A program made the position numbers and the translations under genes. From NCBI RefSeq assembly GCF_000023205.1, contig NC_012803.1:1560001-1592000 (forward strand): a DNA stretch of 32,000 bases, in the 5' to 3' direction. The notes below the pieces were generated by a model, which did not search any database, was not told the DNA's origin, and worked only from the letters and a program-made list of their open reading frames with translations. Below are positions 1 through 31,960 of the stretch, piece after piece (within the stretch, counting starts at the first letter, position 1; the number at the start of each line of letters is the position of its first letter). Source of the DNA: Micrococcus luteus NCTC 2665. GTDB lineage: Bacteria; Actinomycetota; Actinomycetes; Actinomycetales; Micrococcaceae.

Positions 1-3369
<3,369 letters not shown>

Positions 3370-4766
3370 GGCTCTCCTGACGCTTCCGTGGGTGTTCTGG
3401 CGAGCCGTTGACGAGGGCACGCCGCTCTCTGCCTAGGTTTCTGGCTGTTGAGGTCAGTTACCTGAAGGGCGGAGAACGGCGTGCGGAACGCAAGCCTATG
3501 GCGGTCCTTGCTGGGCGTCGAGAAGACGGTCGTGGAGGGCATCGAGTTCGATGAGGACGACCAGCTCCTGGTGGCTCATGTCCGTCCCCGGGCTCGAGTG
3601 CGTGGCCGGTGCGGGCGGTGCGGGCGCAGGTCGCCCGGGTACGACCGTGGCGAGGGTCGGCGGCGGTGGCGGGCGCTGGATCTGGGCACGGTGCAGGTCT
3701 ACCTCGAGGCCGACGCCCCGCGGGTGGCCTGCCGCGAGCACGGTCCCACGGTGGCCGCCGTCCCGTGGGCCAGGCACGGGGCCGGTCACACCGTGGTGTT
3801 CGACGAGCAGGTGGCCTGGCTGGCCACGCAGTGCTCCAAGTCCGCGGTCACCGAGCTGATGCGCATCGCCTGGCGCACCGTCGGGGCGATCATCACCCGG
3901 GTCTGGGCCGACGTGGAGGCCCTCGGCGACCGGTTCGCCGGCCTGCGACGGATCGGCATCGATGAGATCTCCTACAAGAAGGGCCACCGCTACCTCACGA
4001 TCGTGGTCGACCACGACACCGGCCGGCTCGTCTGGGCCGCCCCGGGCCGGGACAAGGCGACCCTGGCGGCGTTCTTCGAGGCCCTCGGGCCCGACCGGTG
4101 CGCCGAGATCACCCACGTCAGCGCCGACGGGGCGGACTGGATCGCCGCCGTGGTCGCCGAGCGGTGCCCGAACGCGGTGCGGTGCGCTGATCCGTTCCAC
4201 ATCGTCAAGTGGGCCACCGAGGCCCTGGACGAGGTCCGTCGCCAGGCGTGGAACGAGGCCCGTGGCGCGGTCCGGCAGCGCCGGGCCGGGCGGGCCGGCG
4301 GGCACGCCAAGGCGCTCAAGCACGCCCGGTACGCGCTGTGGAAGAACCCCGAGAACCTCACCACCCGGCAGCAGGCCAAGCTCGCCTGGGTCGCCAAGAC
4401 CGACCCGCGCCTGCACCGGGCCTACCTGCTCAAGGAAGGACTGCGCCTGGTCTTCCAGCTACCCGCCGACGAGGCCGAGACGGCCCTGGAACGCTGGATC
4501 GGCTGGGCCCGACGTTGCCGCATCCCCGCCTTCGTCGAGCTCCAACGCCGCATCGTCAAGCACAAGGCCTCGATCCTCGCCGCGATCGAGCACGGCCTGT
4601 CCAACGGACGTATCGAGTCCGTGAACACGAAGATTCGGCTCATCACCCGCGTCGCCTTCGGCTTCAAGTCCCCCGAAGCCCTCATCGCCCTGGCCATGCT
4701 CAACCTCGGCGGCCACCGACCCGTCCTACCGGGCCGGAAATGACCCACGGATCAGTCAGGAGAGCC
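3370..4766 (+). mobile_element. ISL3-family insertion sequence, copy 1 (1397 bp), inside the 16S rRNA gene
   Basis: Imperfect terminal inverted repeats: 3370-3393 GGCTCTCCTGACGCTTCCGTGGGT against revcomp of 4743-4766 GGCTCTCCTGACTGATCCGTGGGT (21/24 match). It has 8-bp TSDs and a single transposase ORF. GGCTCT termini and an 8-bp TSD are typical of ISL3. Confidence 0.9.
3481..4743 (+). CDS. ISL3-family DDE transposase (420 aa, GTG start)
   Basis: N-terminal Cys-rich RCGRCGRR zinc-finger-like motif, plus GIDEISYKKGHRYLTIVVDHDTGRLVW, ADPFHIVKW and SNGRIESVNTKIRLITRVAFGF. This pattern matches the IS204/IS1001/IS1096/IS1165 (ISL3) transposase group. Confidence 0.9.
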   Translation: MRNASLWRSLLGVEKTVVEGIEFDEDDQLLVAHVRPRARVRGRCGRCGRRSPGYDRGEGRRRWRALDLGTVQVYLEADAPRVACREHGPTVAAVPWARHGAGHTVVFDEQVAWLATQCSKSAVTELMRIAWRTVGAIITRVWADVEALGDRFAGLRRIGIDEISYKKGHRYLTIVVDHDTGRLVWAAPGRDKATLAAFFEALGPDRCAEITHVSADGADWIAAVVAERCPNAVRCADPFHIVKWATEALDEVRRQAWNEARGAVRQRRAGRAGGHAKALKHARYALWKNPENLTTRQQAKLAWVAKTDPRLHRAYLLKEGLRLVFQLPADEAETALERWIGWARRCRIPAFVELQRRIVKHKASILAAIEHGLSNGRIESVNTKIRLITRVAFGFKSPEALIALAMLNLGGHRPVLPGRK

Positions 4767-6036
<1,270 letters not shown>

Positions 6037-13528: not shown

Positions 13529-14925
13529 GGCTCTCCTGACGCTTCCGTGGGTGTTCTGGCGAGCCGTTGACGAGGGCACGCCGCTCTCTGCCTAGGTTTC
13601 TGGCTGTTGAGGTCAGTTACCTGAAGGGCGGAGAACGGCGTGCGGAACGCAAGCCTATGGCGGTCCTTGCTGGGCGTCGAGAAGACGGTCGTGGAGGGCA
13701 TCGAGTTCGATGAGGACGACCAGCTCCTGGTGGCTCATGTCCGTCCCCGGGCTCGAGTGCGTGGCCGGTGCGGGCGGTGCGGGCGCAGGTCGCCCGGGTA
13801 CGACCGTGGCGAGGGTCGGCGGCGGTGGCGGGCGCTGGATCTGGGCACGGTGCAGGTCTACCTCGAGGCCGACGCCCCGCGGGTGGCCTGCCGCGAGCAC
13901 GGTCCCACGGTGGCCGCCGTCCCGTGGGCCAGGCACGGGGCCGGTCACACCGTGGTGTTCGACGAGCAGGTGGCCTGGCTGGCCACGCAGTGCTCCAAGT
14001 CCGCGGTCACCGAGCTGATGCGCATCGCCTGGCGCACCGTCGGGGCGATCATCACCCGGGTCTGGGCCGACGTGGAGGCCCTCGGCGACCGGTTCGCCGG
14101 CCTGCGACGGATCGGCATCGATGAGATCTCCTACAAGAAGGGCCACCGCTACCTCACGATCGTGGTCGACCACGACACCGGCCGGCTCGTCTGGGCCGCC
14201 CCGGGCCGGGACAAGGCGACCCTGGCGGCGTTCTTCGAGGCCCTCGGGCCCGACCGGTGCGCCGAGATCACCCACGTCAGCGCCGACGGGGCGGACTGGA
14301 TCGCCGCCGTGGTCGCCGAGCGGTGCCCGAACGCGGTGCGGTGCGCTGATCCGTTCCACATCGTCAAGTGGGCCACCGAGGCCCTGGACGAGGTCCGTCG
14401 CCAGGCGTGGAACGAGGCCCGTGGCGCGGTCCGGCAGCGCCGGGCCGGGCGGGCCGGCGGGCACGCCAAGGCGCTCAAGCACGCCCGGTACGCGCTGTGG
14501 AAGAACCCCGAGAACCTCACCACCCGGCAGCAGGCCAAGCTCGCCTGGGTCGCCAAGACCGACCCGCGCCTGCACCGGGCCTACCTGCTCAAGGAAGGAC
14601 TGCGCCTGGTCTTCCAGCTACCCGCCGACGAGGCCGAGACGGCCCTGGAACGCTGGATCGGCTGGGCCCGACGTTGCCGCATCCCCGCCTTCGTCGAGCT
14701 CCAACGCCGCATCGTCAAGCACAAGGCCTCGATCCTCGCCGCGATCGAGCACGGCCTGTCCAACGGACGTATCGAGTCCGTGAACACGAAGATTCGGCTC
14801 ATCACCCGCGTCGCCTTCGGCTTCAAGTCCCCCGAAGCCCTCATCGCCCTGGCCATGCTCAACCTCGGCGGCCACCGACCCGTCCTACCGGGCCGGAAAT
14901 GACCCACGGATCAGTCAGGAGAGCC
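13529..14925 (+). mobile_element. ISL3-family insertion sequence, copy 2 (1397 bp), in the argG upstream region
   Basis: Same length and ends as copy 1. Every six-frame ORF inside it translates identically to its counterpart in copy 1, and I saw no nucleotide difference by eye. It sits 95 bp upstream of the argG start. Confidence 0.9.
13640..14902 (+). CDS. ISL3-family DDE transposase (identical to 3481-4743)
   Basis: Its 420-aa product is identical to that of copy 1. Confidence 0.9.
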   Translation: MRNASLWRSLLGVEKTVVEGIEFDEDDQLLVAHVRPRARVRGRCGRCGRRSPGYDRGEGRRRWRALDLGTVQVYLEADAPRVACREHGPTVAAVPWARHGAGHTVVFDEQVAWLATQCSKSAVTELMRIAWRTVGAIITRVWADVEALGDRFAGLRRIGIDEISYKKGHRYLTIVVDHDTGRLVWAAPGRDKATLAAFFEALGPDRCAEITHVSADGADWIAAVVAERCPNAVRCADPFHIVKWATEALDEVRRQAWNEARGAVRQRRAGRAGGHAKALKHARYALWKNPENLTTRQQAKLAWVAKTDPRLHRAYLLKEGLRLVFQLPADEAETALERWIGWARRCRIPAFVELQRRIVKHKASILAAIEHGLSNGRIESVNTKIRLITRVAFGFKSPEALIALAMLNLGGHRPVLPGRK

Positions 14926-19971: not shown

Positions 19972-22178
<2,207 letters not shown>

Positions 22179-22184
22179 CTAGCG

Positions 22185-22210
22185 TAGATATGCGTTGCAC
22201 GGAATATCTA
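22185..22210 (-). promoter_or_regulatory. Candidate ArgR operator upstream of argC
   Basis: AT-rich inverted repeat TAGATAT-N12-ATATCTA, 16-41 nt upstream of the argC ATG in the divergent argC/qor spacer. Minus-strand reading is GATATTCCGTgcaacGCATAT, sharing 16 fixed positions with the site at 14926-14950. Confidence 0.5.
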
Positions 22211-22270
22211 TGCGGTACCTCGGGTCCCCGGGCCGGGCCGGATGTCCGGGCCCGCTCCTAGAGTGGGGCC

Positions 22271-23272
22271 ATGACCACTGCGAACACCCCCGCCGTCCCC
22301 CGCACCCACCACGCCGTCGTCGTGTCCGCCACGGGCGGCCCCGAGGTCCTGCAGTGGACCGAGACGGAGGTGCCCTCCCCCGCGCCGGGGCACGTGCTGG
22401 TGCGCACCGCCGCGGCGGGCCTGAACTTCATCGAGACGTACCAGCGCTCCGGGGTCTACGCGATGGACCTGCCCTTCACCCCCGGCACCGAGGGCTCCGG
22501 CGAGGTCGTCGCGCTCGGCGAGGGCGTGGACGCCGCGCTCCTGGGGGCCCGTGTCGCCACCGCGACGGCCACCGGTGCGTACGCCGAGCACTTCACCGCC
22601 CCCGCGGATCGTCTCCTCGCCGTCCCGGAGGGCGTCGACCTGGCCGAGGCCGCCGCCCTTCCGCTGCAGGGCATGACGGCCCACTACCTCTGCCGGTCCA
22701 CCTTCCCGGTGGAGGAGGGCCACACGGTGGTCGTGACGGCCGGTGCCGGCGGCGTGGGGCTCCTGCTCACCCAGCTCGCGACGGCCCGCGGCGCCCGCGT
22801 GATCACCACGGCGTCCACGGAGGAGAAGCGGGAGCTGTCCCGGGGCGCGGGCGCCGCCGCCGCGGTGGACTATCCGGACCTCGCCGCCACGGTGGCGGAG
22901 CTGACCGACGGCGAGGGCGCGCACGTCGTGTACGACGGCGTGGGGAAGGACACCTTCGACACCTCGCTCGAGGTGCTGCGCGTGCGCGGCACGCTCGTGC
23001 TCTTCGGCGGGGCCTCCGGGCAGGTGCCCCCCTTCGACCTGCAGCGGCTCAACGCGGCCGGCGCGCTGTACGTCACCCGGCCCTCGCTGGTGCACTACAC
23101 GCGCACGGGCGAGGAGACCCGCTGGCGTGGTGGAGAGGTGTTCGGGGCGTGGGCCTCCGGTGAGCTCGACGTACGGATCGGCGAGCGCTTCCCGCTGGCG
23201 GACGCGGCCGCCGCGCACGCCGCCCTGGAGTCCCGGTCGACGACGGGCAAGGTGCTGCTCACCCTGTCCTGA
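22271..23272 (+). CDS. qor: NADPH:quinone oxidoreductase (zinc-independent MDR superfamily)
   Basis: 333 aa. It has the GLNFIETYQRSGVY and PFTPGTEGSGEV pattern, the cofactor loop VTAGAGGVGLLL, and a C-terminal TTGKVLL. Confidence 0.85.
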   Translation: MTTANTPAVPRTHHAVVVSATGGPEVLQWTETEVPSPAPGHVLVRTAAAGLNFIETYQRSGVYAMDLPFTPGTEGSGEVVALGEGVDAALLGARVATATATGAYAEHFTAPADRLLAVPEGVDLAEAAALPLQGMTAHYLCRSTFPVEEGHTVVVTAGAGGVGLLLTQLATARGARVITTASTEEKRELSRGAGAAAAVDYPDLAATVAELTDGEGAHVVYDGVGKDTFDTSLEVLRVRGTLVLFGGASGQVPPFDLQRLNAAGALYVTRPSLVHYTRTGEETRWRGGEVFGAWASGELDVRIGERFPLADAAAAHAALESRSTTGKVLLTLS

Positions 23273-23299
23273 GCCGGACCCGCCCGGTGCCTTCCGGGC

Positions 23300-23323
23300 G
23301 CCCCGCGCGGCCGCGGGCGGGGC
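23300..23323 (+). terminator. GC hairpin after qor (possible terminator)
   Basis: GCCCCGC pairs with GCGGGGC, plus 2 further bp around a GCCG loop. There is no T tract. Confidence 0.3.
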
Positions 23324-23324
23324 A

Positions 23325-23330
23325 TAGAAT
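23325..23330 (+). promoter_or_regulatory. Possible -10 box TAGAAT for the pls-like gene
   Basis: This is the only AT-rich hexamer in the qor-pls spacer, 65 nt upstream of GTG 23395. I found no convincing -35 box. Confidence 0.25.
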
Positions 23331-23394
23331 GTTCCGCTGCGGCCTGGTCCGTGTCCGACCCTCGGTTCGCCGCTCACACCCCCCGGAGGCCCCT

Positions 23395-26300
23395 GTGTCC
23401 CTTTCGTCCGCCGCGCCCACCCCGCCCTCTGTCCCCCTCGACCCTGCGGGCGCACCGCATCGGCCGCAGCTGCCCGGCTCCGAGCGCACCCCGCCCGCCC
23501 GGACGCTCGTGGAGCTCTTCGACGCCACGGCGCGCGAGCACCCGGACGCGACCGCCCTGGACGACGGCGTCGAGCCGCTGACGTACGCGGAGCTGCGGGA
23601 GCGGGTCGACGAGACCGCCCGCCACCTGTGGGCCGCCGGCGTGCGGAAGGGAGACCGGGTCGGCGTGCGGATCGCCTCGGGCACGGCCGCGCTGTACGTC
23701 TCGATCCTCGGCGTGCTCGCCGCCGGCGCGGCCTACGTCCCCGTGGACGCGGACGATCCGGAGGAGCGCGCCCGTCTCGTGTTCGGCGAGGCGAAGGTGG
23801 CCGGCGTCCTCACCGACGAGCGGGTCTACGCCCCGCACCCCGAGCACACCGTGGACCCGGCCGCCGAGGCCCGCGCCCCCGGGCTCGAGGACGACGCGTG
23901 GATCATCTTCACCTCGGGCTCGACGGGCACCCCCAAGGGCGTGGCGGTGAGCCACCGCTCGGCCGCGGCCTTCGTGGACGCCGAGGCGCGGATCTTCCTG
24001 GCGGACGATCCGCTCGCCCCGGGCGACCGCGTGCTGGCGGGACTGTCCGTCGCGTTCGACGCCTCGTGCGAGGAGATGTGGCTCGCCTGGCGTCACGGTG
24101 CGTGCCTGGTCCCGGCCCCCCGCTCGCTCGTGCGCTCCGGCATGGACCTCGGCCCGTGGCTCGCCGAGCGGCGCATCACCGCCGTGTCCACCGTGCCGAC
24201 CCTCGCTGCGATGTGGCCCACCGAGGCCATGGACAACGTCCGGCTGCTGATCTTCGGCGGCGAGGCCTGCCCTCCCGAGCTCGCCGCGCGCCTGGCGGAG
24301 GACGGCCGCGAGGTCTGGAACACCTACGGCCCCACGGAGGCCACCGTCGTCGCGTGCGCGGCCCCGCTCACCGGTCTCGGCCCGGTCCGCATCGGCCTGC
24401 CCCTGGACGGCTGGGACCTGGCCGTCGTCGACCCGCAGACCACGCTGCCCGTGGCCGAGGGCGAGACGGGCGAGCTGATCATCGGCGGCGTCGGCCTGGC
24501 CCGCTACCTCGATCCGGCCAAGGACGCCGAGAAGTACGCCCCCATGCCCTCCCTCGGCTGGGAGCGCGCCTACCGCTCCGGCGACCTCGTGGTCTTCGAG
24601 CCGGAGGGCCTGCTGTTCGTCGGCCGCGCCGACGACCAGGTGAAGCTCGGCGGCCGGCGCATCGAGCTCGGCGAGGTGGACGCGGCCCTCCAGGCCCTGC
24701 CCGGCGTCCACGGCGGCGCCGCGGCCGTGCAGACCACCCCGGCGGGCCACCAGATCCTCGTCGGCTACCTCGTGCCCGCGGACCCCGAGGCCGGGCTCGA
24801 CCTGCACATGGCCCGCGAGCACCTCGCGGCGGAGCTGCCGGCCGCCCTCGTGCCCCGGCTGGCCGTCGTGGACGCCCTGCCCACGAAGACCTCCGGCAAG
24901 GTGGACCGCCACGCGCTGCCGTGGCCCCTGCCCGGCGCCGAGGTGGACGAGGACGCGCCCCAGCCGGACGAGGACACCGCCGACGGCTGGGTGCTGCGCC
25001 AGTGGGCGGACGTGCTCGGCGCGCCCCCCAAGGACGCCGACACCGACTTCTTCGAGGCCGGCGGCGGCTCGCTCGCCGCGGCCCAGCTCGTGGCCCGCCT
25101 GCGCCTGCGCCACCCGGCCGTGACCGTCCAGGACGTCTACCGCAACCCCACTGCCGGGGCCCTCGTGGCCGCCGTCGTGGGCGAGGACGGCCCCCGCGGC
25201 ATCGAGGTGCACGACCGGCACGTCGACCGCACCCGCCACCGCACCCAGTGGGTCCAGACCCTCGTGGGGCTGCCCGTGTTCGTCCTGCCCGCCCTGCGCC
25301 TGGGCGTGTGGACCGGCCTGGCCCTGAACCTGCTGACGCTCTCCGGGCTGGCGCCCGGGCTGCCCACCGTGCCGTGGTGGGTGCTGATCGTGGCCGGCCT
25401 GCTGGTGGTCACCGTGCCCGGCCGCATGCTGCTCACCGCCGCGACGGCCCGGCTGCTGCTGCGCGGCGTGAGCCCCGGGTCCTACCCGCGCGGCGGCCGC
25501 GTCCACCTGCGCCTGTGGCTCGCCCAGCAGATCAGCGACCTCGTGGACCCCTACTCGCTGGCCGGCGCCACGTGGGTGCCCGCCTACGCGCGACTGCTGG
25601 GCAACCGGATCGGCAAGGACGTGGACATGCACACCGTGCCACCGGTCACCGGCATGCTCACGGTCGAGGAGGGCGCCGCGATCGAGCCCGAGGTGGACCT
25701 GTCCGGCTACTGGGTCGACGGCGACGTCGTCCGGCTCGGCGAGGTGCGCATCGGCGCGGACGCCGTCGTGGGCGCCCGCTCCACGCTCCTGCCGGGCGCC
25801 CGGGTCGGCGCCGGGGCGCACGTCGAGGCCGGGTCCACCGTCGCCGGGTGGGTGCGCGGCGGCCAGCGCCACGCCGGCTCCCCCGCCGTCAAGGTGGGCA
25901 AGGTGAAGCCCCGCGGCCCCGCCGAGGCGCCGCGGGAGACCCCGGGCTGGCGCCTGATGGCGACCGTCCTCTCGACCCTCGTCTCCCTCCTGCCGCTCGT
26001 CTCCGCCGCCGCGGCGGCCGCGGTGGCCGCGTGGTCGCTGACCTGGTGGCCGCCGGCCCCGGAGGCGGGACCGCTGGCCGCCGTCGGGACCACCGCGGCG
26101 CGCCTGCTGGCCGCGAGCCCCCTGGTGGCCGGCGTGTGGTTCCTGACCCAGATGCTGCTCGTGCTCGTCACGGTGCGCCTGCTCGCGCTCGGCATCACGG
26201 AGGGGCACCACCCCGTGCGCTCCCGGGTCGGCTGGCAGGTGTGGGCCACCGAGCGCGTCCTCGACGCCGCCCGCGACCAGCTCTTCCCGATCTACGCCTC

Positions 26301-27402
26301 CCGCTTCACGCCGACGTGGCTGCGCCTGCTCGGCGCCGAGGTGGGCCGCGGCGTCGAGGCCTCCACCGTGGTGCTCGTGCCGAGCATGACCCGCGTGGGC
26401 GACGGCGCGTTCCTCGCCGACGACACGATGGTCTCCTCCTACTCCCTCGACGGCGGGTGGATGCACGTGGCCCCCGCGAAGGTCGGCAAGCGCTCGTTCG
26501 TGGGCAACTCCGGCATGGTGCCCGGTGGCCGCACGCTGCGCCGCGACTCGCTCGTGGCGGTGCTGTCCACCACCCCGGCCAAGACCAAGGCGGGCACGTC
26601 CTGGATGGGCTCCCCACCCGTGCGCCTGCGCCGCAACGAGGTCACCGCGGACGCCTCCCTCACCTACGACCCGCCGGCCCGGCTCAAGGCCGCCCGCACC
26701 GCCTGGGAGCTGCTGCGCGCGATCCCGGTGTGGCTGCACGTGGCCCTGTCCCTCGCCGTCGGCGCGACGCTGGCCGCCCTCATCGCGGTCGGCACGTGGG
26801 TGCTGGCCTTCGTCCTGGGCGGCGTCGTCCTGCTCGCGGCCGGCGCGGTCGCGGCGGGCCTGACCGTGCTCGCCAAGTGGGTCTTCGTGGGCCGGATCCG
26901 CGCGGGCGAGCACCCGCTGTGGTCCTCGTTCATCTGGCGCAACGAGGTCGCGGACACCTTCACCGAGTTCCTCGCCGCCCCGTGGTTCACCCGGGCCGCG
27001 GCCGGCACCCCCGCCCTGGTCTGGTTCCTGCGCGCGATGGGCGCCCGGATCGGCCACGGGGCCTGGGTCGAGTCGTACTGGCTGCCCGAGGCCGACCTCG
27101 TGGAGCTCGGCGACGGCGCCACCGTGAACCGCGGCTGCGTCGTCCAGACCCACCTGTTCCACGACCGCGTGATGTCCCTGGACGCCGTCGTCCTGGAGGA
27201 CGGCGCCACCCTCGGCCCCCACTCCGTGGTGCTGCCTGCCGCTCGCCTGGGCCGCGGCACCACCGTCGGCGCCGGGTCCCTCGTGATGCGCGGCGAGGAG
27301 CTGCCCGCCGGCACGTGGTGGCTCGGCAACCCGGTCTCCCCGTGGCGTCGTCCCGACGGCGACCCCGCCGCCGCGACCACCCCCTCCCGAGAGGAAGCAT
27401 GA
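23395..27402 (+). CDS. Pls-type membrane-embedded single-module NRPS (homopoly(amino acid) synthetase-like): A-T-TM1/2-C1-TM3/4-C2-TM5/6-C3
   Basis: 1335 aa from GTG 23395, with GGAGG at 23385-23389 (the track ORF starts at 23287). Adenylation motifs are IIFTSGSTGTPKG, FDAS, NTYGPTE, YRSGDL, GRADDQVKLGGRRIELGEV and TSGKVDR. The carrier motif is FFEAGGGSLAAAQL. Three paralogous ~140-aa soluble domains follow, each preceded by two long hydrophobic stretches. There is no HHxxxDG condensation motif and no thioesterase motif. Confidence 0.88.
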   Translation: MSLSSAAPTPPSVPLDPAGAPHRPQLPGSERTPPARTLVELFDATAREHPDATALDDGVEPLTYAELRERVDETARHLWAAGVRKGDRVGVRIASGTAALYVSILGVLAAGAAYVPVDADDPEERARLVFGEAKVAGVLTDERVYAPHPEHTVDPAAEARAPGLEDDAWIIFTSGSTGTPKGVAVSHRSAAAFVDAEARIFLADDPLAPGDRVLAGLSVAFDASCEEMWLAWRHGACLVPAPRSLVRSGMDLGPWLAERRITAVSTVPTLAAMWPTEAMDNVRLLIFGGEACPPELAARLAEDGREVWNTYGPTEATVVACAAPLTGLGPVRIGLPLDGWDLAVVDPQTTLPVAEGETGELIIGGVGLARYLDPAKDAEKYAPMPSLGWERAYRSGDLVVFEPEGLLFVGRADDQVKLGGRRIELGEVDAALQALPGVHGGAAAVQTTPAGHQILVGYLVPADPEAGLDLHMAREHLAAELPAALVPRLAVVDALPTKTSGKVDRHALPWPLPGAEVDEDAPQPDEDTADGWVLRQWADVLGAPPKDADTDFFEAGGGSLAAAQLVARLRLRHPAVTVQDVYRNPTAGALVAAVVGEDGPRGIEVHDRHVDRTRHRTQWVQTLVGLPVFVLPALRLGVWTGLALNLLTLSGLAPGLPTVPWWVLIVAGLLVVTVPGRMLLTAATARLLLRGVSPGSYPRGGRVHLRLWLAQQISDLVDPYSLAGATWVPAYARLLGNRIGKDVDMHTVPPVTGMLTVEEGAAIEPEVDLSGYWVDGDVVRLGEVRIGADAVVGARSTLLPGARVGAGAHVEAGSTVAGWVRGGQRHAGSPAVKVGKVKPRGPAEAPRETPGWRLMATVLSTLVSLLPLVSAAAAAAVAAWSLTWWPPAPEAGPLAAVGTTAARLLAASPLVAGVWFLTQMLLVLVTVRLLALGITEGHHPVRSRVGWQVWATERVLDAARDQLFPIYASRFTPTWLRLLGAEVGRGVEASTVVLVPSMTRVGDGAFLADDTMVSSYSLDGGWMHVAPAKVGKRSFVGNSGMVPGGRTLRRDSLVAVLSTTPAKTKAGTSWMGSPPVRLRRNEVTADASLTYDPPARLKAARTAWELLRAIPVWLHVALSLAVGATLAALIAVGTWVLAFVLGGVVLLAAGAVAAGLTVLAKWVFVGRIRAGEHPLWSSFIWRNEVADTFTEFLAAPWFTRAAAGTPALVWFLRAMGARIGHGAWVESYWLPEADLVELGDGATVNRGCVVQTHLFHDRVMSLDAVVLEDGATLGPHSVVLPAARLGRGTTVGAGSLVMRGEELPAGTWWLGNPVSPWRRPDGDPAAATTPSREEA
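23500..24921 (+). other. Adenylation domain of the pls-like synthetase
   Basis: Core motifs A3 through A10 occur in order (aa 72-545 of the track protein). Confidence 0.85.
24973..25182 (+). other. Thiolation (PCP) domain; phosphopantetheine Ser at 25069-25071
   Basis: DFFEAGGGSLAAAQLVARLR. The Ser of GGGS is the expected attachment site. Confidence 0.85.
25489..25911 (+). other. C-terminal tandem domain C1 (left-handed beta-helix / acetyltransferase-like)
   Basis: WVPAYARLLGNRIGKDV, followed by hexapeptide-like repeats (VRIGADAVVGARSTLLPGARVGAGAHVEAGSTV). Confidence 0.7.
26224..26634 (+). other. C-terminal tandem domain C2
   Basis: TPTWLRLLGAEVGRGV, followed by hexapeptide-like repeats (VGDGAFLADDT..VGKRSFVGNSGMVPGG). 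It is paralogous to C1 and C3. Confidence 0.7.
26899..27345 (+). other. C-terminal tandem domain C3
   Basis: ALVWFLRAMGARIGHGAW, followed by hexapeptide-like repeats (LGDGATVNRGCVV..LEDGATLGPHSVVLPAARLGRGTTVGAGSLV). Confidence 0.7.
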
Positions 27403-28739
27403 GCACCGATCCCTACGTCCCGGGCGTCGGCACCGACGCCGCCACCGTCGAGCACATCGCGCTGGACCTCGACGTGCGCCTGGCCGCGAACCGGGTCTCC
27501 GGCACCGCCGTCCTGCGCGTGCGCCTGGCGAAGCAGAGCCGCCGCATCGAACTGGACCTGCACCGGCTGCGCGTCTCCCGGGTGGCCGCCGTCGTCGACG
27601 GCCGCGCCATCGCCTCCTCGTTCACCCAGCCGGGCCGCGCCCCGAGTCGCCTCGTCGTCGACCTGGGCGAGAGCCTGCCGGAGGGCACGCTCGTGGAGCT
27701 CACCGTGGTCTACGCGGGCACGCCCACGCTGCGGCGCAGCCCGTGGGGCACGATCGGCTGGGAGGAGCTCACGGACGGCGTGCTCGTGGCCGGGCAGCCC
27801 CACGGCGCCTCCACGTGGCTGCCGTGCGTGGACTCCCCCACCTCACGCTCGACGGCGGAGATCACCCTCACCTGCGATGCGGGCTACCTGCCCGTCGCCA
27901 ACGGCGTGGGCGCACCCGTGCGCACGCGCGGCTCGCGGGTCACGTGGCGGTGGCGGCTCGACCAGCCCGTGCCCGCCTACCTGCTCAGCGTGCAGATCGG
28001 CCGCTACCGGCTCGTGGACGCCGCCCCTCCCGCCGAGGGCCTGCCGGCGCTGCGCCTCGTGGTCTCCCCGCGGACCGAGCAGCGGGCCCGCCGGGCCCTC
28101 GCCCCCCAGCCGGCCATGATGGCCACGTTCATCGACGCCTACGGGCCGTACCCGTTCGAGGACTACACCGCGGTCGTGGCCGACGAGGAGCTCGAGATCC
28201 CGCTCGAGGCCGCGGGCATGTCCCTGTTCGGCACCAACCACCTGGACGGCTCGTGGGAGTCCGAGCGGCTGATCGCCCACGAGATGTCCCACCAGTGGTT
28301 CGGCAACGCCGTGACCCTGGGCCGCTGGTCCGACCTGTGGCTGCACGAGGGCTTCGCCTGCTGGTCCGAGTGGCTGTGGGCCGAGGCCTCGGGGCGGTCC
28401 AGCATCACCTCGATGGCGCGGCGGGCCTGGCAGAAGCTGGCCGCGCACCCGGTGGAGCAGGCGCTGGCCGAGCCCGGGCCGGAGGAGATGTTCGAGGACT
28501 GGGTGTACAAGCGCGGCGCGCTCACCGTGGAGGCGCTGCGGCAGCTGCTCGGCGCGGACCTCTTCGGCTCCATGCTGCGCGCCTGGGTGCGGGAGCACCG
28601 GTTCGGCACCGTCGACTCCCTGGGGCTGCGCACGCACGTGCACGCGTGGGCCCCGCACGCCGGGGTGAGCCGGGCACAGGTGGACGAGCTCTTCGACGCG
28701 TGGACGCTGCGGCCCGCCCTGCCGCCGTTCCCGGGCTGA
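27399..28739 (+). CDS. short M1-family zinc metallopeptidase (446 aa)
   Basis: Its ATG overlaps the pls-like TGA (ATGA). It has HEMSH-X18-E (28278-28349, within HEMSHQWFGNAVTLGRWSDLWLHEGFA) and the catalytic-Tyr context WVYKRG. AGMSL stands where GxMEN is expected. There is no N-terminal signal or TM segment, and the large C-terminal domain of aminopeptidase N is absent. Confidence 0.85.
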   Translation: MSTDPYVPGVGTDAATVEHIALDLDVRLAANRVSGTAVLRVRLAKQSRRIELDLHRLRVSRVAAVVDGRAIASSFTQPGRAPSRLVVDLGESLPEGTLVELTVVYAGTPTLRRSPWGTIGWEELTDGVLVAGQPHGASTWLPCVDSPTSRSTAEITLTCDAGYLPVANGVGAPVRTRGSRVTWRWRLDQPVPAYLLSVQIGRYRLVDAAPPAEGLPALRLVVSPRTEQRARRALAPQPAMMATFIDAYGPYPFEDYTAVVADEELEIPLEAAGMSLFGTNHLDGSWESERLIAHEMSHQWFGNAVTLGRWSDLWLHEGFACWSEWLWAEASGRSSITSMARRAWQKLAAHPVEQALAEPGPEEMFEDWVYKRGALTVEALRQLLGADLFGSMLRAWVREHRFGTVDSLGLRTHVHAWAPHAGVSRAQVDELFDAWTLRPALPPFPG

Positions 28740-28757
28740 CGCGGCCGCGCGGTCGAC

Positions 28758-29378
28758 TCAGCGGCCCCGCAGCGCCAGCGCCCCGACGAGACCGCCCGGC
28801 AGCCGGTCGGTGAGGTCCACCAGCACGACGTCGGCCGGCACGGTCAGCGCGTCGACGGCGGCGGGGTCGCCGGTGAAGCCGGTGCCGACGGCCTTCACGA
28901 GCGCCTCCTTGCGCGTCCACAGCCGGGCCCGCGCGGCGGGCCTCTCGGGGCCGGGAAGCTCCCGCACCCGGGCGCGCTCCGCCGTCGAGAAGCCCACCCC
29001 GCCCAGGCCGTCCTCGTCCGCGAAGGCCGCGGCGTCCGCCCGCTCGACGTCCACCCCGAGGCCGAGCCCGTCGGCGGGCCGTGCCGGCGCCCACCACGCC
29101 CCGATCCGTGCCCGGTCCTCGGCGCCGGGCATCCGGACGTGCGTGAACGAGACGAGGGCGACCCGGCCGGGGGGCAGGCCGGTCAGCGCGGGGGCGCCGT
29201 GCGCGGCCGAGCCGCAGCCCGCGCAGGCGTGCCGGAGCCCGAGCGGCCCCACCGGCACGCCCCAGGCCGCCGTCAGGGCGGTGCGCACCTGACCGAGCAG
29301 CGCGGAGACGGCGTCGGCCGCCCCCGCCGAGGCGGGGACGGCCGATGTCAGGCCCCACGGGCCGGTCGCGGCGGACAC
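28758..29378 (-). CDS. Sfp-type 4'-phosphopantetheinyl transferase
   Basis: 206 aa from GTG 29378, which is 2 nt after the pheT TGA. These are the last 206 codons of the 998-aa track ORF. Motifs are GVDVE (29043-29057), WTRKEALVKA (28890-28919) and CAGCGSAAHGAP (the HGxP region). Confidence 0.75.
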   Translation of the reverse strand: MSAATGPWGLTSAVPASAGAADAVSALLGQVRTALTAAWGVPVGPLGLRHACAGCGSAAHGAPALTGLPPGRVALVSFTHVRMPGAEDRARIGAWWAPARPADGLGLGVDVERADAAAFADEDGLGGVGFSTAERARVRELPGPERPAARARLWTRKEALVKAVGTGFTGDPAAVDALTVPADVVLVDLTDRLPGGLVGALALRGR

Positions 29379-29380
29379 GG

Positions 29381-31960
29381 TCAGCGCTGGACCGCCCCGT
29401 GCCGCTGCGCCGCGAGCGCGGTGGCCGCGGCGCGGGCCTCGGAGACCTCCTCCGCGGTGAGCGTGCGGTCGGGGGCGCGGAAGCGCAGGGAGAACGCGAG
29501 GGACTTCCGCCCCTCCGGCACGCCCGCGCCCCGGTAGACGTCGAACAGCTCGACGGCCTCGAGCAGCTCCCCGGCGCCCTCGGCGAGGGTCGCGCGCACG
29601 TCCCCGGCCACGACGGCCTCGTCCACCACGAGCGCCACGTCCTGCGTGCTCACGGGGAACGTGGACAGCGGTGCGGCGACCACGATCTCGGCGGCCGCGG
29701 CGCACAGCGCGTCCAGGTCCAGCTCCCACACGCTCGTGCGGGCGGGCAGGTCCTCGGCCTCGAGCCACTGCGGGTGCAGCTCGCCGGCCACGCCCACCAC
29801 CCGGTCCCCGTGCTCGGTCACGACGACGAGCTCGGCCACCCGGCCCGGGTGGAACGCGTGGTGCCGGCCCTGCCGGACGGTCAGCTCGACGCCGAGGACG
29901 TCGGCCACGTCGAGGGCTCCGGCGACCGCGTCCTGCCAGTCCACCGGGCGGGGGTCGTGGTCCGGCCCGGGCGCCGAGTCGTGCCCGGCGTACAGACCGG
30001 CCACGTGCCACGGCTGGGCAGGGATGCCGGCCTCGAGGTCGGCCAGGACCTCGGCGGAGGGGTGGACCGCGCGCGGCGGGATCGTCGCCGAGCCCAGCTG
30101 CGCGCCGGGCAGGAAGACCAGCCCCATCTCGTACAGCGCCAGATCGCGGAAGCCGCGTCCGAGGTTGCGGCGCGCGGTCTCGACGAGGCCCGGCAGCAGC
30201 GACAGACGCAGGTGCCGGTACTGGGAGGCGATCGGATTGGCCAGGGCCACCATCGCCAGGGCCTGGCCCTGCGCGTCCGAGTCCGCCCCGAAACGCCGGT
30301 TCTGCTCTTCGGAGACGAACGGGTAGGCGAGCACCTCGGTGAGACCTGCGGCCGCGAGCGCGGCCGACACGCGGCGACGCTGGGCCTGGCGGCGGGTGAA
30401 GCCGCGGCCCGGCGGGGCCACGGGCACCACGGAGGGGATCGCGTCGTAGCCGCGCAGGCGCGCGACCTCCTCGGCGAGGTCCTCGGGGATGCGCAGGTCG
30501 GTGCGCCACGACGGGGCGGTCACGGTCAGCCGCGGGGCGGCGCCGTCGGCGGCCTCGGTGACCCTCACCTCGGCGCCCAGGGCCCGCAGCGTCTCCACGA
30601 CCTCGTCGGTCGTGTACGCCACACCCACCAGGGCGGAGGGGAAGTCGGCGGCCATCTCGACGACGGCCGGCTCCGGCCGCGTCCCGACGTCGGTGACCCC
30701 GGGCTCGGCGGTGCCGCCGGCGAGCTCGACGAGCAGCTGGACGGCCCGCTCGGCCGCCTCGTCGGCGACCTCCCAGTCGACGCCGCGCTCGTTGCGCTTC
30801 GACGCCTCCGAGGGCAGGCGGTGTCGGCGCCGCGTTCGCGCGATCGACACGGGGTCGAAGTTCGCGGACTCGACCACGATCGTGGTGGTGGCGTCCGTGA
30901 CCTCGGTGGCGGCCCCGCCCATGACGCCCGCGAGGCCGATGGGGCCGGAGTCGTCCGCGATGAGCAGGTCCTCGGGGTCGAGCTCGCGCTCCTTGCCGTC
31001 GAGGGTGGTCAGGGTCTCTCCGGCCCGCGCGCGGCGCACCACGATCTCGCCGGAGAGCGTGTCCGCGTCGTAGAAGTGCAGGGGCTGGCCCAGCTCCCAC
31101 ATCACGTAGTTGGAGATGTCCACCGGCAGGGAGATGGTGCGGATGCCGGCCAGGCGCAGGCGCGCGGCCAGCCACGGCGGGGTCGGACGGGTCGCGTCCA
31201 CGCCGGAGACCGTGCGGGCCACGAAGCGGGTGGCCCCGGGCTCGCCGTGGATCGGCGCGTCGTCGGCGATCCGGACGGCCGGGCCGGCGTCGTCGGCCGC
31301 GGGCGGGTGGATGGCCGCGGCCGGGTCCGTGAAGGGCACGCCGGTGGCGTGCGCGTACTCGCGTGCGACGCCGCGCATCGAGAACGCGTAGCCGCGGTCG
31401 GGCGTCACGTTGATCTCGGCGGCCTCGCCGTGCAGGTCCAGGACGTCCCGGGCGTCGGTGCCCGGCTCGGGGTCGAGCCCGAGGTCGCCGAGCACGATGA
31501 TCCCGTCCGTGCCGTCGTCGCCCATGCCCAGCTCCGTGCTGGAGGCGATCATGCCGGCCGAGACGTGGCCGTAGGTCTTGCGGGGGCTGATGCGGAAGTC
31601 GCCGGGCAGCACCGCGCCGGGCAGGGTCACGACGACCTTGTCCCCGACCTCGAAGTTGTGGGCGCCGCACACGATGCCCTGCACGCCGGAGGGCTCGATG
31701 CCCTCGCCGGTGAGCGGCTGCTCGGCGCCCTCGGGCACCACCCGCACGGAGCACCAGTTGATGGTCTTGCCGTTCTTCTGCGGCTCGGGCTCCTTGGAGA
31801 GCACCTGCCCGACGACGATCGGGCCCTGCAGCTCGGCGGCCGGACGGTGGACGTCCTCCTCCTCGAGGCCGACGCGGACGAGGTCGGCCATCACGTCCTC
31901 GGCACGGTGCTCCGCGGGCACGGGGACGAACTCCCGCAGCCAGTCCAGGGGGATGCGCAT
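29381..31960 (-). CDS. pheT: phenylalanine--tRNA ligase beta subunit
   Basis: 859 aa. N-terminal MRIPLDWLREF, a tRNA-binding (OB) domain, B3/4 and B5 regions, and a C-terminal ferredoxin-fold anticodon-binding domain (KSLAFSLRFRAPDRTLT). Confidence 0.95.
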   Translation of the reverse strand: MRIPLDWLREFVPVPAEHRAEDVMADLVRVGLEEEDVHRPAAELQGPIVVGQVLSKEPEPQKNGKTINWCSVRVVPEGAEQPLTGEGIEPSGVQGIVCGAHNFEVGDKVVVTLPGAVLPGDFRISPRKTYGHVSAGMIASSTELGMGDDGTDGIIVLGDLGLDPEPGTDARDVLDLHGEAAEINVTPDRGYAFSMRGVAREYAHATGVPFTDPAAAIHPPAADDAGPAVRIADDAPIHGEPGATRFVARTVSGVDATRPTPPWLAARLRLAGIRTISLPVDISNYVMWELGQPLHFYDADTLSGEIVVRRARAGETLTTLDGKERELDPEDLLIADDSGPIGLAGVMGGAATEVTDATTTIVVESANFDPVSIARTRRRHRLPSEASKRNERGVDWEVADEAAERAVQLLVELAGGTAEPGVTDVGTRPEPAVVEMAADFPSALVGVAYTTDEVVETLRALGAEVRVTEAADGAAPRLTVTAPSWRTDLRIPEDLAEEVARLRGYDAIPSVVPVAPPGRGFTRRQAQRRRVSAALAAAGLTEVLAYPFVSEEQNRRFGADSDAQGQALAMVALANPIASQYRHLRLSLLPGLVETARRNLGRGFRDLALYEMGLVFLPGAQLGSATIPPRAVHPSAEVLADLEAGIPAQPWHVAGLYAGHDSAPGPDHDPRPVDWQDAVAGALDVADVLGVELTVRQGRHHAFHPGRVAELVVVTEHGDRVVGVAGELHPQWLEAEDLPARTSVWELDLDALCAAAAEIVVAAPLSTFPVSTQDVALVVDEAVVAGDVRATLAEGAGELLEAVELFDVYRGAGVPEGRKSLAFSLRFRAPDRTLTAEEVSEARAAATALAAQRHGAVQR

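Follow-up and report, generated by a model that had tools for sequence, protein, structure and literature searches.

The question raised by this locus is which amino acid is activated by the adenylation (A) domain of a large synthetase-like gene of Micrococcus luteus NCTC 2665, and what kind of product may be expected from it. The window analysed is the whole 32,000-nucleotide stretch of DNA in which this gene lies, and a first-pass annotation of it had derived the specificity code DAESIGTVVK by hand and had proposed a basic, lysine-like substrate. The mechanically called ORF (23287..27402, plus strand) opens at GTG 23287; the best-supported start is nevertheless GTG 23395, which has a GGAGG 5 nt upstream, is used by the database gene calls on 24 contigs and yields a 1335-aa product identical to M. 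luteus AJO56025.1, QCY45183.1 and SQG47360.1. The A domain had been placed at aa 72-545, a numbering that runs from GTG 23287 and becomes aa 36-509 in the database protein; the change leaves the code itself untouched. The gene, its parts and its two downstream neighbours are as follows.

23395..27402, plus strand, pls-like gene: 1335-aa single-module NRPS-like membrane enzyme of the Pls/PosA family (ORF, homologues, NCBIfam)
23500..24921, plus strand, A domain, aa 36-509 (Pfam AMP-binding, E 2.6e-65)
24988..25176, plus strand, thiolation (T, carrier) domain (Pfam PP-binding, E 9e-13)
25252..27399, plus strand, C-terminal membrane polymerisation region (hydropathy, hexapeptide repeats, TIGR02353)
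27399..28739, plus strand, PldII-like M1 family zinc metallopeptidase, 446 aa (Pfam Peptidase_M1 and Peptidase_M1_N)
28758..29378, minus strand, 4'-phosphopantetheinyl transferase (PPTase) superfamily gene, 206 aa, Sfp-like by size (Pfam ACPS PF01648, E 1.5e-12)

The architecture is that of the Pls/PosA family, with an A-T pair lacking condensation and thioesterase domains (the Pfam matches are AMP-binding, PP-binding and Hexapep only, and none of the NCBIfam hits is a domain of either type), a match to NCBIfam TIGR02353 above its cut-off (670.6 against 423.1 bits; aa 620-1314, positions 2-695 of the 695 in the model) and six predicted membrane segments combined with three C domains; TIGR01733 also scores above its cut-off (340.8 against 317.4 bits). 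The putative phosphopantetheine-attachment serine of the T domain lies in a GGGSL motif (nt 25060-25074, Ser codon 25069-25071). By hydropathy, the six hydrophobic segments are paired and separate three hexapeptide-repeat domains, in the approximate layout TM1/TM2 620-683, C1 684-852, TM3/TM4 853-935, C2 936-1105, TM5/TM6 1106-1166 and C3 1167-1335. These three regions, of the left-handed beta-helix acyltransferase-like type, match PDB and Pfam entries separately, and C1, C2 and C3 are mutually homologous (pairwise z 9.6-19 against shuffles). When the C-terminal 732 aa were compared with PDB sequences, the matches were generic hexapeptide acyltransferases and gamma-carbonic anhydrases, with no solved Pls/PosA membrane domain among them. 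The best PDB match of the A domain is 7wew_A, an ε-poly-L-lysine synthase (E 4.3e-195, 654 bits, about 70% identity), the A domains of PosA (8g95) and GrsA (1amu) reaching 192 and 193 bits, respectively. Features particular to Pls are likewise found, namely a code whose second position is Ala, the residues in contact with Lys-AMP and a PldII-type M1 peptidase downstream.

The five motif strings quoted in the first-pass annotation each occur once in the ORF 23287..27402, and the codons of the ten assigned GrsA positions fall exactly where they had been placed.

24055-24078, plus strand, FDASCEEM
24175-24201, plus strand, ITAVSTVPT
24244-24264, plus strand, LLIFGGE
24319-24354, plus strand, NTYGPTEATVVA
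24889-24909, plus strand, TSGKVDR
24058-60, plus strand, GrsA 235 = D
24061-63, plus strand, GrsA 236 = A
24070-72, plus strand, GrsA 239 = E
24187-89, plus strand, GrsA 278 = S
24250-52, plus strand, GrsA 299 = I
24256-58, plus strand, GrsA 301 = G
24322-24, plus strand, GrsA 322 = T
24346-48, plus strand, GrsA 330 = V
24349-51, plus strand, GrsA 331 = V
24898-900, plus strand, GrsA 517 = K
24058..24900, plus strand, span of the ten code codons, D A E S I G T V V K (codon mapping; alignment to GrsA and 7WEW)

Since the codon of position 235 begins at 24058 and that of position 517 ends at 24900, the span 24058..24900 is bounded exactly by the first and the last of the code codons. The same ten residues are read from a MAFFT alignment with GrsA-PheA (1AMU; the reference used is identical to residues 1-556 of PDB 1amu_A save position 2) and with 7WEW, in which all five code blocks align with the Pls sequence without a gap, so that the hand-derived code is reproduced in full; reading a code off raw DNA by eye can thus give exactly the right result. 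DAESIGTVVK is carried by 118 of 120 protein homologues and, among the matches listed, by 77 of 80 genome loci.

The substrate was assigned by direct comparison of this code with those of characterised family members. S. albulus Pls (BAG68864.1) uses lysine by experiment, and its published Stachelhaus code (PMC10522769, Suppl. Table 2) is identical to that of the window at 10/10 positions, as is the code extracted from 7WEW, the sequence of the Pls A-domain crystal structure. In the structure with Lys-AMP, the α-amine and carbonyl are held by D213 and K495, and the ε-amine is salt-bridged by E217 and hydrogen-bonded by T301 and S256 (PMC11253843). D213, K495, E217, T301 and S256 correspond to code positions 235, 517, 239, 322 and 278, and all five contacts are conserved in the window as D222, K502, E226, T310 and S265 (1335-aa numbering). 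The suggestion that a cationic side chain is recognised through an acidic residue at 239 is thus, because these five contacts are conserved, a structurally established mechanism, with E217 as its counterpart, and each code residue is tied to a crystallographically defined lysine contact. A shift of the pocket residues in a structure-guided alignment had been named as grounds for abandoning the reading; such an alignment cannot shift the pocket, because over GrsA positions 235-331 the window matches the 7WEW sequence at 75/98 residues (77%) without gaps. The resemblance of the first six positions to the lysine signature DAESIG, named in that annotation for bacitracin synthetase and for Pls, holds for both: BacB module 1 (Lys) reads DAESIGSV, matching the window at 7/8 positions, and the match to Pls extends over the whole code. 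BacB module 1, however, belongs to a canonical multimodular NRPS with condensation domains and not to a homopolymer synthetase. The proposed lysine-like substrate is therefore upheld by computation, on the strength of the 10/10 Pls code and the conserved lysine contacts, and the pocket comparison supports the view that the A domain of this Pls homologue would activate lysine.

The gene context points in the same direction. The ATG of the peptidase gene overlaps the TGA of the pls-like gene (ATGA, 27399-27402), the peptidase carries an HEXXH-X18-E motif and lacks a GXMEN motif, an absence suggestive of endo-type PldII function, and a homologue of it lies directly downstream on the same strand in 67 of the 80 Pls loci among the matches listed (a set containing neither S. 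albulus nor C. variabile), including L001, in agreement with the pls-pldII operon described previously (PMC8117764). The PPTase gene (database call ACS30941.1) is convergent with that of the peptidase, and 4/5 Micrococcaceae loci among the matches listed have a homologue no more than about 4 kb from pls; this adjacent PPTase is likely to be what activates the carrier domain of Pls. Over a distance of about 10 kb, the genes identified are argH, argG, argF, argD, argB, argJ, argC, a quinone oxidoreductase, the M1 peptidase, the PPTase and pheT/pheS, the pls locus being situated between the arg and pheST operons.

Comparison with S. albulus Pls at full length was made through L001, from Streptomyces sp. 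MspMP-M5, which shares 92% identity with S. albulus Pls in the A domain and is its closest relative among the matches listed; a search for homologues of the 7WEW A domain had returned only partial proteins (up to 860 aa), with no S. albulus entry. The window protein shares with S. albulus Pls the code, the lysine contacts, the order A-T-TM1/2-C1-TM3/4-C2-TM5/6-C3 and a downstream M1 peptidase (PldII). It differs in overall sequence, with 53% identity over the full length to L001, the relative through which its distance from S. albulus Pls is measured, and in its setting, since M. luteus is a small-genome skin and environmental coccus in which the PPTase gene is adjacent and arg and pheST flank the locus. 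The closest published parallel outside Streptomyces among the systems compared is Pls of C. variabile (PMC8117764, AEM 2021), which by its published description has the same architecture, a pls-peptidase operon and a Pls-type pocket in another actinobacterium. It is 51% identical to S. albulus Pls with the same operon context, and directed the synthesis of 26-35-mer ε-PL when expressed in S. coelicolor, although in C. variabile itself neither ε-PL nor the Pls protein in the proteome was detected (PMC8117764). Synthesis of ε-PL has accordingly been established for that enzyme by heterologous expression, whereas the M. luteus enzyme is known here from its sequence; by analogy with C. variabile, its gene may be silent under laboratory conditions.

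That M. luteus encodes a Pls-like synthetase is a sound, ordinary and already known finding. The exact protein is named "Pls/PosA family non-ribosomal peptide synthetase" in the M. luteus entries of NCBI, and in most Micrococcus genomes the cluster is flagged by antiSMASH ("NAPAA"). [quoted passage not shown] With the protein public, the cluster flagged and the substrate predicted, the biological addition made here is small. M. luteus is a common skin commensal and a classic antibiotic test organism.

Following the Pls scheme, the A domain would bind L-lysine with its α-amine and carboxylate held by Asp222 and Lys502 and its ε-ammonium held at the bottom of the pocket by Glu226, together with Ser265 and Thr310, Ala223 keeping the pocket deep. 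Lysine would be adenylated and passed as a thioester to the phosphopantetheine arm of the T domain, an arm probably installed by the neighbouring PPTase. The C-terminal region, with its six membrane helices and three tandem acyltransferase-like domains, would then join lysines iteratively, the Lys-thioester being attacked by the ε-amine of free lysine or of the growing chain, and the resulting isopeptide-linked cationic polymer would be released outside the cell; the translationally coupled M1 peptidase would be the counterpart of PldII, an endo-type ε-PL degrader thought to be self-protective. Most probably, the M. luteus gene encodes a Pls-type polylysine synthetase acting in this way. Points against this reading are that the C-terminal region, on which regiochemistry and chain length depend, shares only 30-60% identity with Streptomyces Pls, that the chain-length residue W646 of S. 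albulus Pls is replaced, that the gene may be silent and that M. luteus is itself reported to be sensitive to ε-PL.

Other cationic amino acids must be weighed against lysine, since D235, E239 and K517 are common to the whole family and, alone, do not discriminate between substrates, and since PosA also accepts L-Lys weakly. An A domain taking Orn, DAB, DAP, β-Lys or Arg would make the enzyme the source of another cationic homopolymer, like PosA, PldA, PddA or the β-lysine polymer synthetase, but this is very improbable in view of a 10/10 match to Pls against 6/10 for PosA/Orn, 6/10 for DAP, 5/10 for β-Lys and 4/10 for both L-DAB and D-DAB. The first-pass annotation had expected similar but distinct codes in these enzymes and had proposed aligning characterised A domains of the family, which gives this 4-6/10 range. 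Position 2, linked to substrate chain length by PosA mutagenesis, is Ala in the window and in Pls, as opposed to Met (Orn), Phe (DAB/DAP) or Gly (β-Lys). The δ-poly-L-ornithine synthetase PosA of A. baumannii (PDB 8G95-8G98) shares the TIGR02353 'Pls/PosA' family, the general mechanism and D235/E239/K517; a synthetase of its type was rejected on its code, DMEHNGTVSK, in which the second residue, Met, limits chain length to that of Orn, and its A domain scores 192 bits, against 654 for Pls. An ε-poly-β-lysine synthetase (code DGESVSVVNK) was rejected likewise, lysine 2,3-aminomutase being absent among the genes identified within about 10 kb, as were poly-DAB and poly-DAP synthetases (DFE..., Phe at position 2), given Ala here and the absence of dat/ask or DAP-supply neighbours; throughout the window, no gene for lysine 2,3-aminomutase, DAB transaminase/aspartokinase or DAP synthesis was found.

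With lysine as the preferred substrate, the product may still depart from the classical 25-35-mer ε-poly-L-lysine, whether as a short oligomer, as a polymer in a different length class or as lysine transferred to another acceptor. Substitution of W646 shortens chains in S. albulus Pls, according to a review. Trp occupies this column in 59/79 homologues (79-sequence alignment, among the matches listed); the window has Gly there, and none of the three other Micrococcaceae sequences displayed has Trp. Moreover, 9 residues are inserted into the TM3-TM4 linker next to the L883 column, and identity to Streptomyces Pls is only 30-38% in the TM and linker regions. With W646 replaced by Gly and the insertion in the linker, product length is not predictable. 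An atypical product is unlikely overall, as neither the architecture of three domains and six TM segments nor the match to TIGR02353 is incomplete, the similarly divergent C. variabile Pls still yields 26-35-mers and the conserved PldII-like peptidase argues for polylysine. That pls is a non-functional or permanently silent relic without product would fit the lack of reports of ε-PL from Micrococcus in the literature searched, the lack of native Pls expression in C. variabile and the sensitivity of M. luteus to ε-PL (reported MIC 4 µg/ml, from a review). Against this stand an intact, full-length ORF with a GC3 of 0.97, the conservation of all core motifs and pocket residues, a 90% cluster of 539 member sequences and a peptidase and PPTase synteny kept across Micrococcaceae genera, which together argue for purifying selection and make a relic highly unlikely.

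A further, rather doubtful idea is that pls-pldII-PPTase of the Micrococcaceae represents a vertically inherited, near-core locus between arg and pheST, instead of a sporadic secondary-metabolite island, with enzymes naturally lacking W646, and that M. luteus, though sensitive to commercial ε-PL, might make a lysine isopeptide, short-chain or otherwise unusual, that has a role in its physiology or in skin ecology.

Over the region of interest, where GC content is about 75%, the Pls/PosA-type synthetase is encoded by a single open reading frame with two GTG codons considered as its start.

23287..27402, plus strand: open reading frame of 1371 codons, third-position GC 0.97
23395..27402, plus strand: pls-like gene, 1335 aa

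The GTG at 23395 is supported as the start, since it is preceded at 5 bases by GGAGG and is the one used in the deposited proteins; the GTG at 23287, from which the first-pass annotation had numbered the protein, lacks such support, and that numbering is abandoned here, while the code residues read from it stand. The 1335-aa product is 100% identical to M. luteus AJO56025.1, QCY45183.1 and SQG47360.1, and is also encoded on chromosome CP035298.1 under the NCBI name "Pls/PosA family non-ribosomal peptide synthetase".

The specificity code DAESIGTVVK had originally been derived by eye from five motif strings, each of which occurs once in the translation. The same code was recovered from a MAFFT alignment of GrsA-PheA, the window protein, the Pls A domain from 7WEW (the crystal structure of the S. 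albulus domain), at least 80 genome loci and 120 protein homologues, read at GrsA columns 235/236/239/278/299/301/322/330/331/517. The GrsA-PheA reference is identical to PDB 1amu_A over residues 1–556 except at position 2, and its columns read DAWTIAAICK, the textbook Phe code. The code codons fall as follows, so that the span under study, 24058..24900, runs exactly from the first to the last of them.

Codons of the A-domain specificity code (GrsA-PheA numbering; all plus strand)
24058-60: 235, D
24061-63: 236, A
24070-72: 239, E
24187-89: 278, S
24250-52: 299, I
24256-58: 301, G
24322-24: 322, T
24346-48: 330, V
24349-51: 331, V
24898-900: 517, K

All five code blocks align without gaps to the Pls sequence, and DAESIGTVVK is almost invariant in the sampled branch of the family, being present in 77 of the 80 loci among the matches listed and in 118 of 120 protein homologues.

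Reference codes were taken from the characterised cationic homopolymer synthetases in Supplementary Table 2 of the PosA paper (PMC10522769).

Reference specificity codes and substrates (PMC10522769)
S. albulus Pls: DAESIGTVVK, Lys
A. baumannii PosA: DMEHNGTVSK, Orn
S. celluloflavus enzyme: DFECLSAVTK, DAB
S. albulus PD-1 enzyme: DFEYVGTVTK, DAP
S. hindustanus enzyme: DGESVSVVNK, beta-Lys
Second S. hindustanus enzyme: DFECLSCVSK, D-DAB

The window protein matches S. albulus Pls at 10 of 10 positions, which bears out the Lys-like reading, and the caution that synthetases using Orn, DAB, DAP or beta-Lys carry similar but distinct codes proves well placed, as only 4–6 of 10 positions agree with theirs. 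The Lys signature of the bacitracin synthetase module BacB-M1 is DAESIGSV, with which the window agrees at 7 of 8 positions. PosA mutagenesis shows that code position 2 governs the length of the accepted side chain, with Met for Orn, Phe for DAB or DAP and Ala for Lys, and the PosA M218A mutant gained Lys activity; this position is Ala in the window protein. The top PDB match is 7wew_A, "epsilon-poly-L-lysine synthase" (E 4.3e-195, 654 bits), with lower scores for the PosA A domain (8g95, 192 bits) and GrsA (193 bits). In 7WEW with Lys-AMP bound, the amine and carbonyl are held by D213 and K495, and the epsilon-amine is bound by E217 through a salt bridge and by T301 and S256 through hydrogen bonds (review PMC11253843). 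These Lys-AMP contacts, numbered 214, 218, 257, 302 and 496 in the deposited chain (a uniform offset of one), correspond exactly to code positions 235, 239, 278, 322 and 517, and all five residues are kept in the window protein. A shift of the pocket under structure-guided alignment, which the first-pass annotation had named as grounds for refutation, is ruled out because the two sequences are identical at 75 of 98 residues, without gaps, across GrsA positions 235–331. Both the original observation and its cautious interpretation are correct, and lysine is very probably the substrate of the A domain.

Beyond the A domain, Pfam AMP-binding, PP-binding and Hexapep domains are found, and TIGR02353 (the NCBIfam terminal domain of the "Pls/PosA family non-ribosomal peptide synthetase") matches end to end, scoring 670.6 bits where 423.1 is the cut-off. 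Hydropathy places three pairs of hydrophobic segments at about aa 620-683, 853-935 and 1106-1166; the three soluble regions between and after them each carry a hexapeptide-repeat, beta-helix acyltransferase-like stretch, and are mutually homologous (z 9.6–19 against shuffles). The predicted layout is A-T-TM-C1-TM-C2-TM-C3, as described for Pls. A PDB sequence search with the C-terminal part returned no solved structure of the membrane region. The Pls of Streptomyces sp. MspMP-M5, which shares 92% A-domain identity with S. albulus Pls, served as the full-length comparator. Overall identity of the window protein to it is 53%, with 70% in the A domain, 44–60% in C1–C3 and 30–38% in the TM and linker regions.

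The main uncertainty concerns the length of the product and whether the gene is expressed. Substitution of W646 in S. albulus Pls shortens the chains (review); this column, in the TM1-TM2 linker, is Trp in 59 of 79 homologues among the matches listed, Gly in the window protein (near 25360) and a residue other than Trp in each of the three further Micrococcaceae sequences shown. In the TM3-TM4 linker (about 26040-26070), a 9-residue insertion, WWPPAPEAG, lies beside the L883 column. Together, the Gly and the insertion may indicate that the chains are shorter or of another length. The Pls homologue of C. variabile lacks native expression in its own host (PMC8117764), and a review gives M. luteus as an epsilon-PL-sensitive species, with an MIC of 4 ug/ml.

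Two neighbouring genes may be relevant to the function of the synthetase.

27399..28739, plus strand: M1 family metallopeptidase, 446 aa; its ATG overlaps the pls stop (ATGA, 27399-27402)
28758..29378, minus strand: 4'-phosphopantetheinyl transferase (PPTase) superfamily gene, 206 aa, Sfp-like by size, convergent with the peptidase gene

Both products are identical to those of the type strain (ACS30940.1 and ACS30941.1). Of the 80 actinobacterial Pls loci listed, 67 have an M1 homologue directly 3' of pls in the same orientation, that of MspMP-M5 included; the Streptomyces gene in this position has been identified as pldII, encoding an endo-type epsilon-PL-degrading enzyme, and the pls-peptidase operon is regarded as a mark setting Pls apart from DAB and DAP synthetases (PMC8117764; review). 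The pls-linked peptidase keeps HEXXH-X18-E and reads E-A-A-G-M-S-L-F at aa 270-277, in place of the GXMEN exopeptidase motif of M1 aminopeptidases; across 69 pls-linked homologues the consensus at this site is A-Q-G-[LMI]-S-[IV]-F, with Glu and Asn absent. For M1 enzymes in general, the absence of GXMEN would be consistent with an endo-type mode of action such as PldII is reported to have. The PPTase gene starts the search for an enzyme priming the Pls carrier domain as the evident candidate; it is 18 bp past the peptidase stop, and pheT ends 2 bp before it. Of the 5 Micrococcaceae loci, 4 (L023, L038, L059, L073) have a PPTase homologue no more than about 4 kb from pls, and none was found near pls in the non-Micrococcaceae loci listed.

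The remaining neighbours are housekeeping genes. Upstream, argH, argG, argF, argD, argB, argJ and argC run on the strand opposite to pls, a quinone oxidoreductase gene immediately precedes pls in the same orientation, and tyrS and an rRNA operon lie farther out; downstream is pheT, with pheS past the 3' end of the window in matching public contigs. Genes for lysine 2,3-aminomutase, DAB transaminase, aspartokinase or DAP synthesis were not found in the window. The order across 21129..31960, argC(-), quinone oxidoreductase(+), pls(+), M1 peptidase(+), PPTase(-), pheT(-), recurs in part, with the PPTase gene variable, in Zafaria, Arthrobacter and Paenarthrobacter (L030, L038, L073), which suggests vertical inheritance in Micrococcaceae; the cluster has the look of a long-established insertion separating the arg operon from pheST rather than a recent island.

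In the scheme that we propose, the Asp/Glu/Ser/Thr/Lys pocket would recognise and adenylate L-lysine, which would be loaded onto the carrier domain primed by the PPTase. The membrane-embedded C1–C3 region would then link the lysines by epsilon-isopeptide bonds, and the coupled M1 peptidase would serve, like PldII, in polymer degradation or self-protection. This complete account, with epsilon-polylysine as product, is considered likely. The synthetase belongs to a known family and has been annotated and discussed before. In 2021, heterologous expression confirmed that the C. variabile homologue is an epsilon-PL synthetase, in a study that named Micrococcus among the genera with Pls homologues, reported that the Micrococcus homologues group with confirmed Pls enzymes and that the coryneform pockets, taken together, equal or closely resemble that of Pls, and predicted lysine as their substrate (PMC8117764). 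Most of 52 Micrococcus genomes carry an antiSMASH "NAPAA" (epsilon-polylysine-like) cluster (Micrococcus natural products review), and this cluster is routinely listed in Micrococcus genome announcements. The literature searched yielded no account of a Micrococcus making polylysine.

Some database entries deserve comment. The 90% cluster of the synthetase has 539 member sequences; the 90% clusters of the synthetase and peptidase include two fragments that probably reflect contamination of the source assemblies with Micrococcus DNA, one of 81 aa assigned to Xanthomonas citri pv. citri (MBD4603738.1, 245-bp contig) and one assigned to Streptococcus pneumoniae as a 'lysyl-aminopeptidase' (CVM62682.1). 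A metagenome-assembled genome labelled Candidatus Melainabacteria (L051) carries an actinobacterial-type Pls A domain, 68% identical to that of S. albulus, with a linked M1 peptidase, and could represent a mis-binned contig or horizontal transfer.

Elsewhere in the window, two 100% identical ISL3-family insertion sequences of 1397 bp are each bounded by their own 8-bp target-site duplication, CTTTTTGG and ATAAATAT.

3370..4766: ISL3 copy 1, transposase ORF 3481..4743
13529..14925: ISL3 copy 2, transposase ORF 13640..14902

Copy 1 lies within the minus-strand 16S rRNA gene, at about 16S position 1270-1290, and cuts it into 4767..6035 and 3121..3369, so that one rrs copy of the strain is interrupted.
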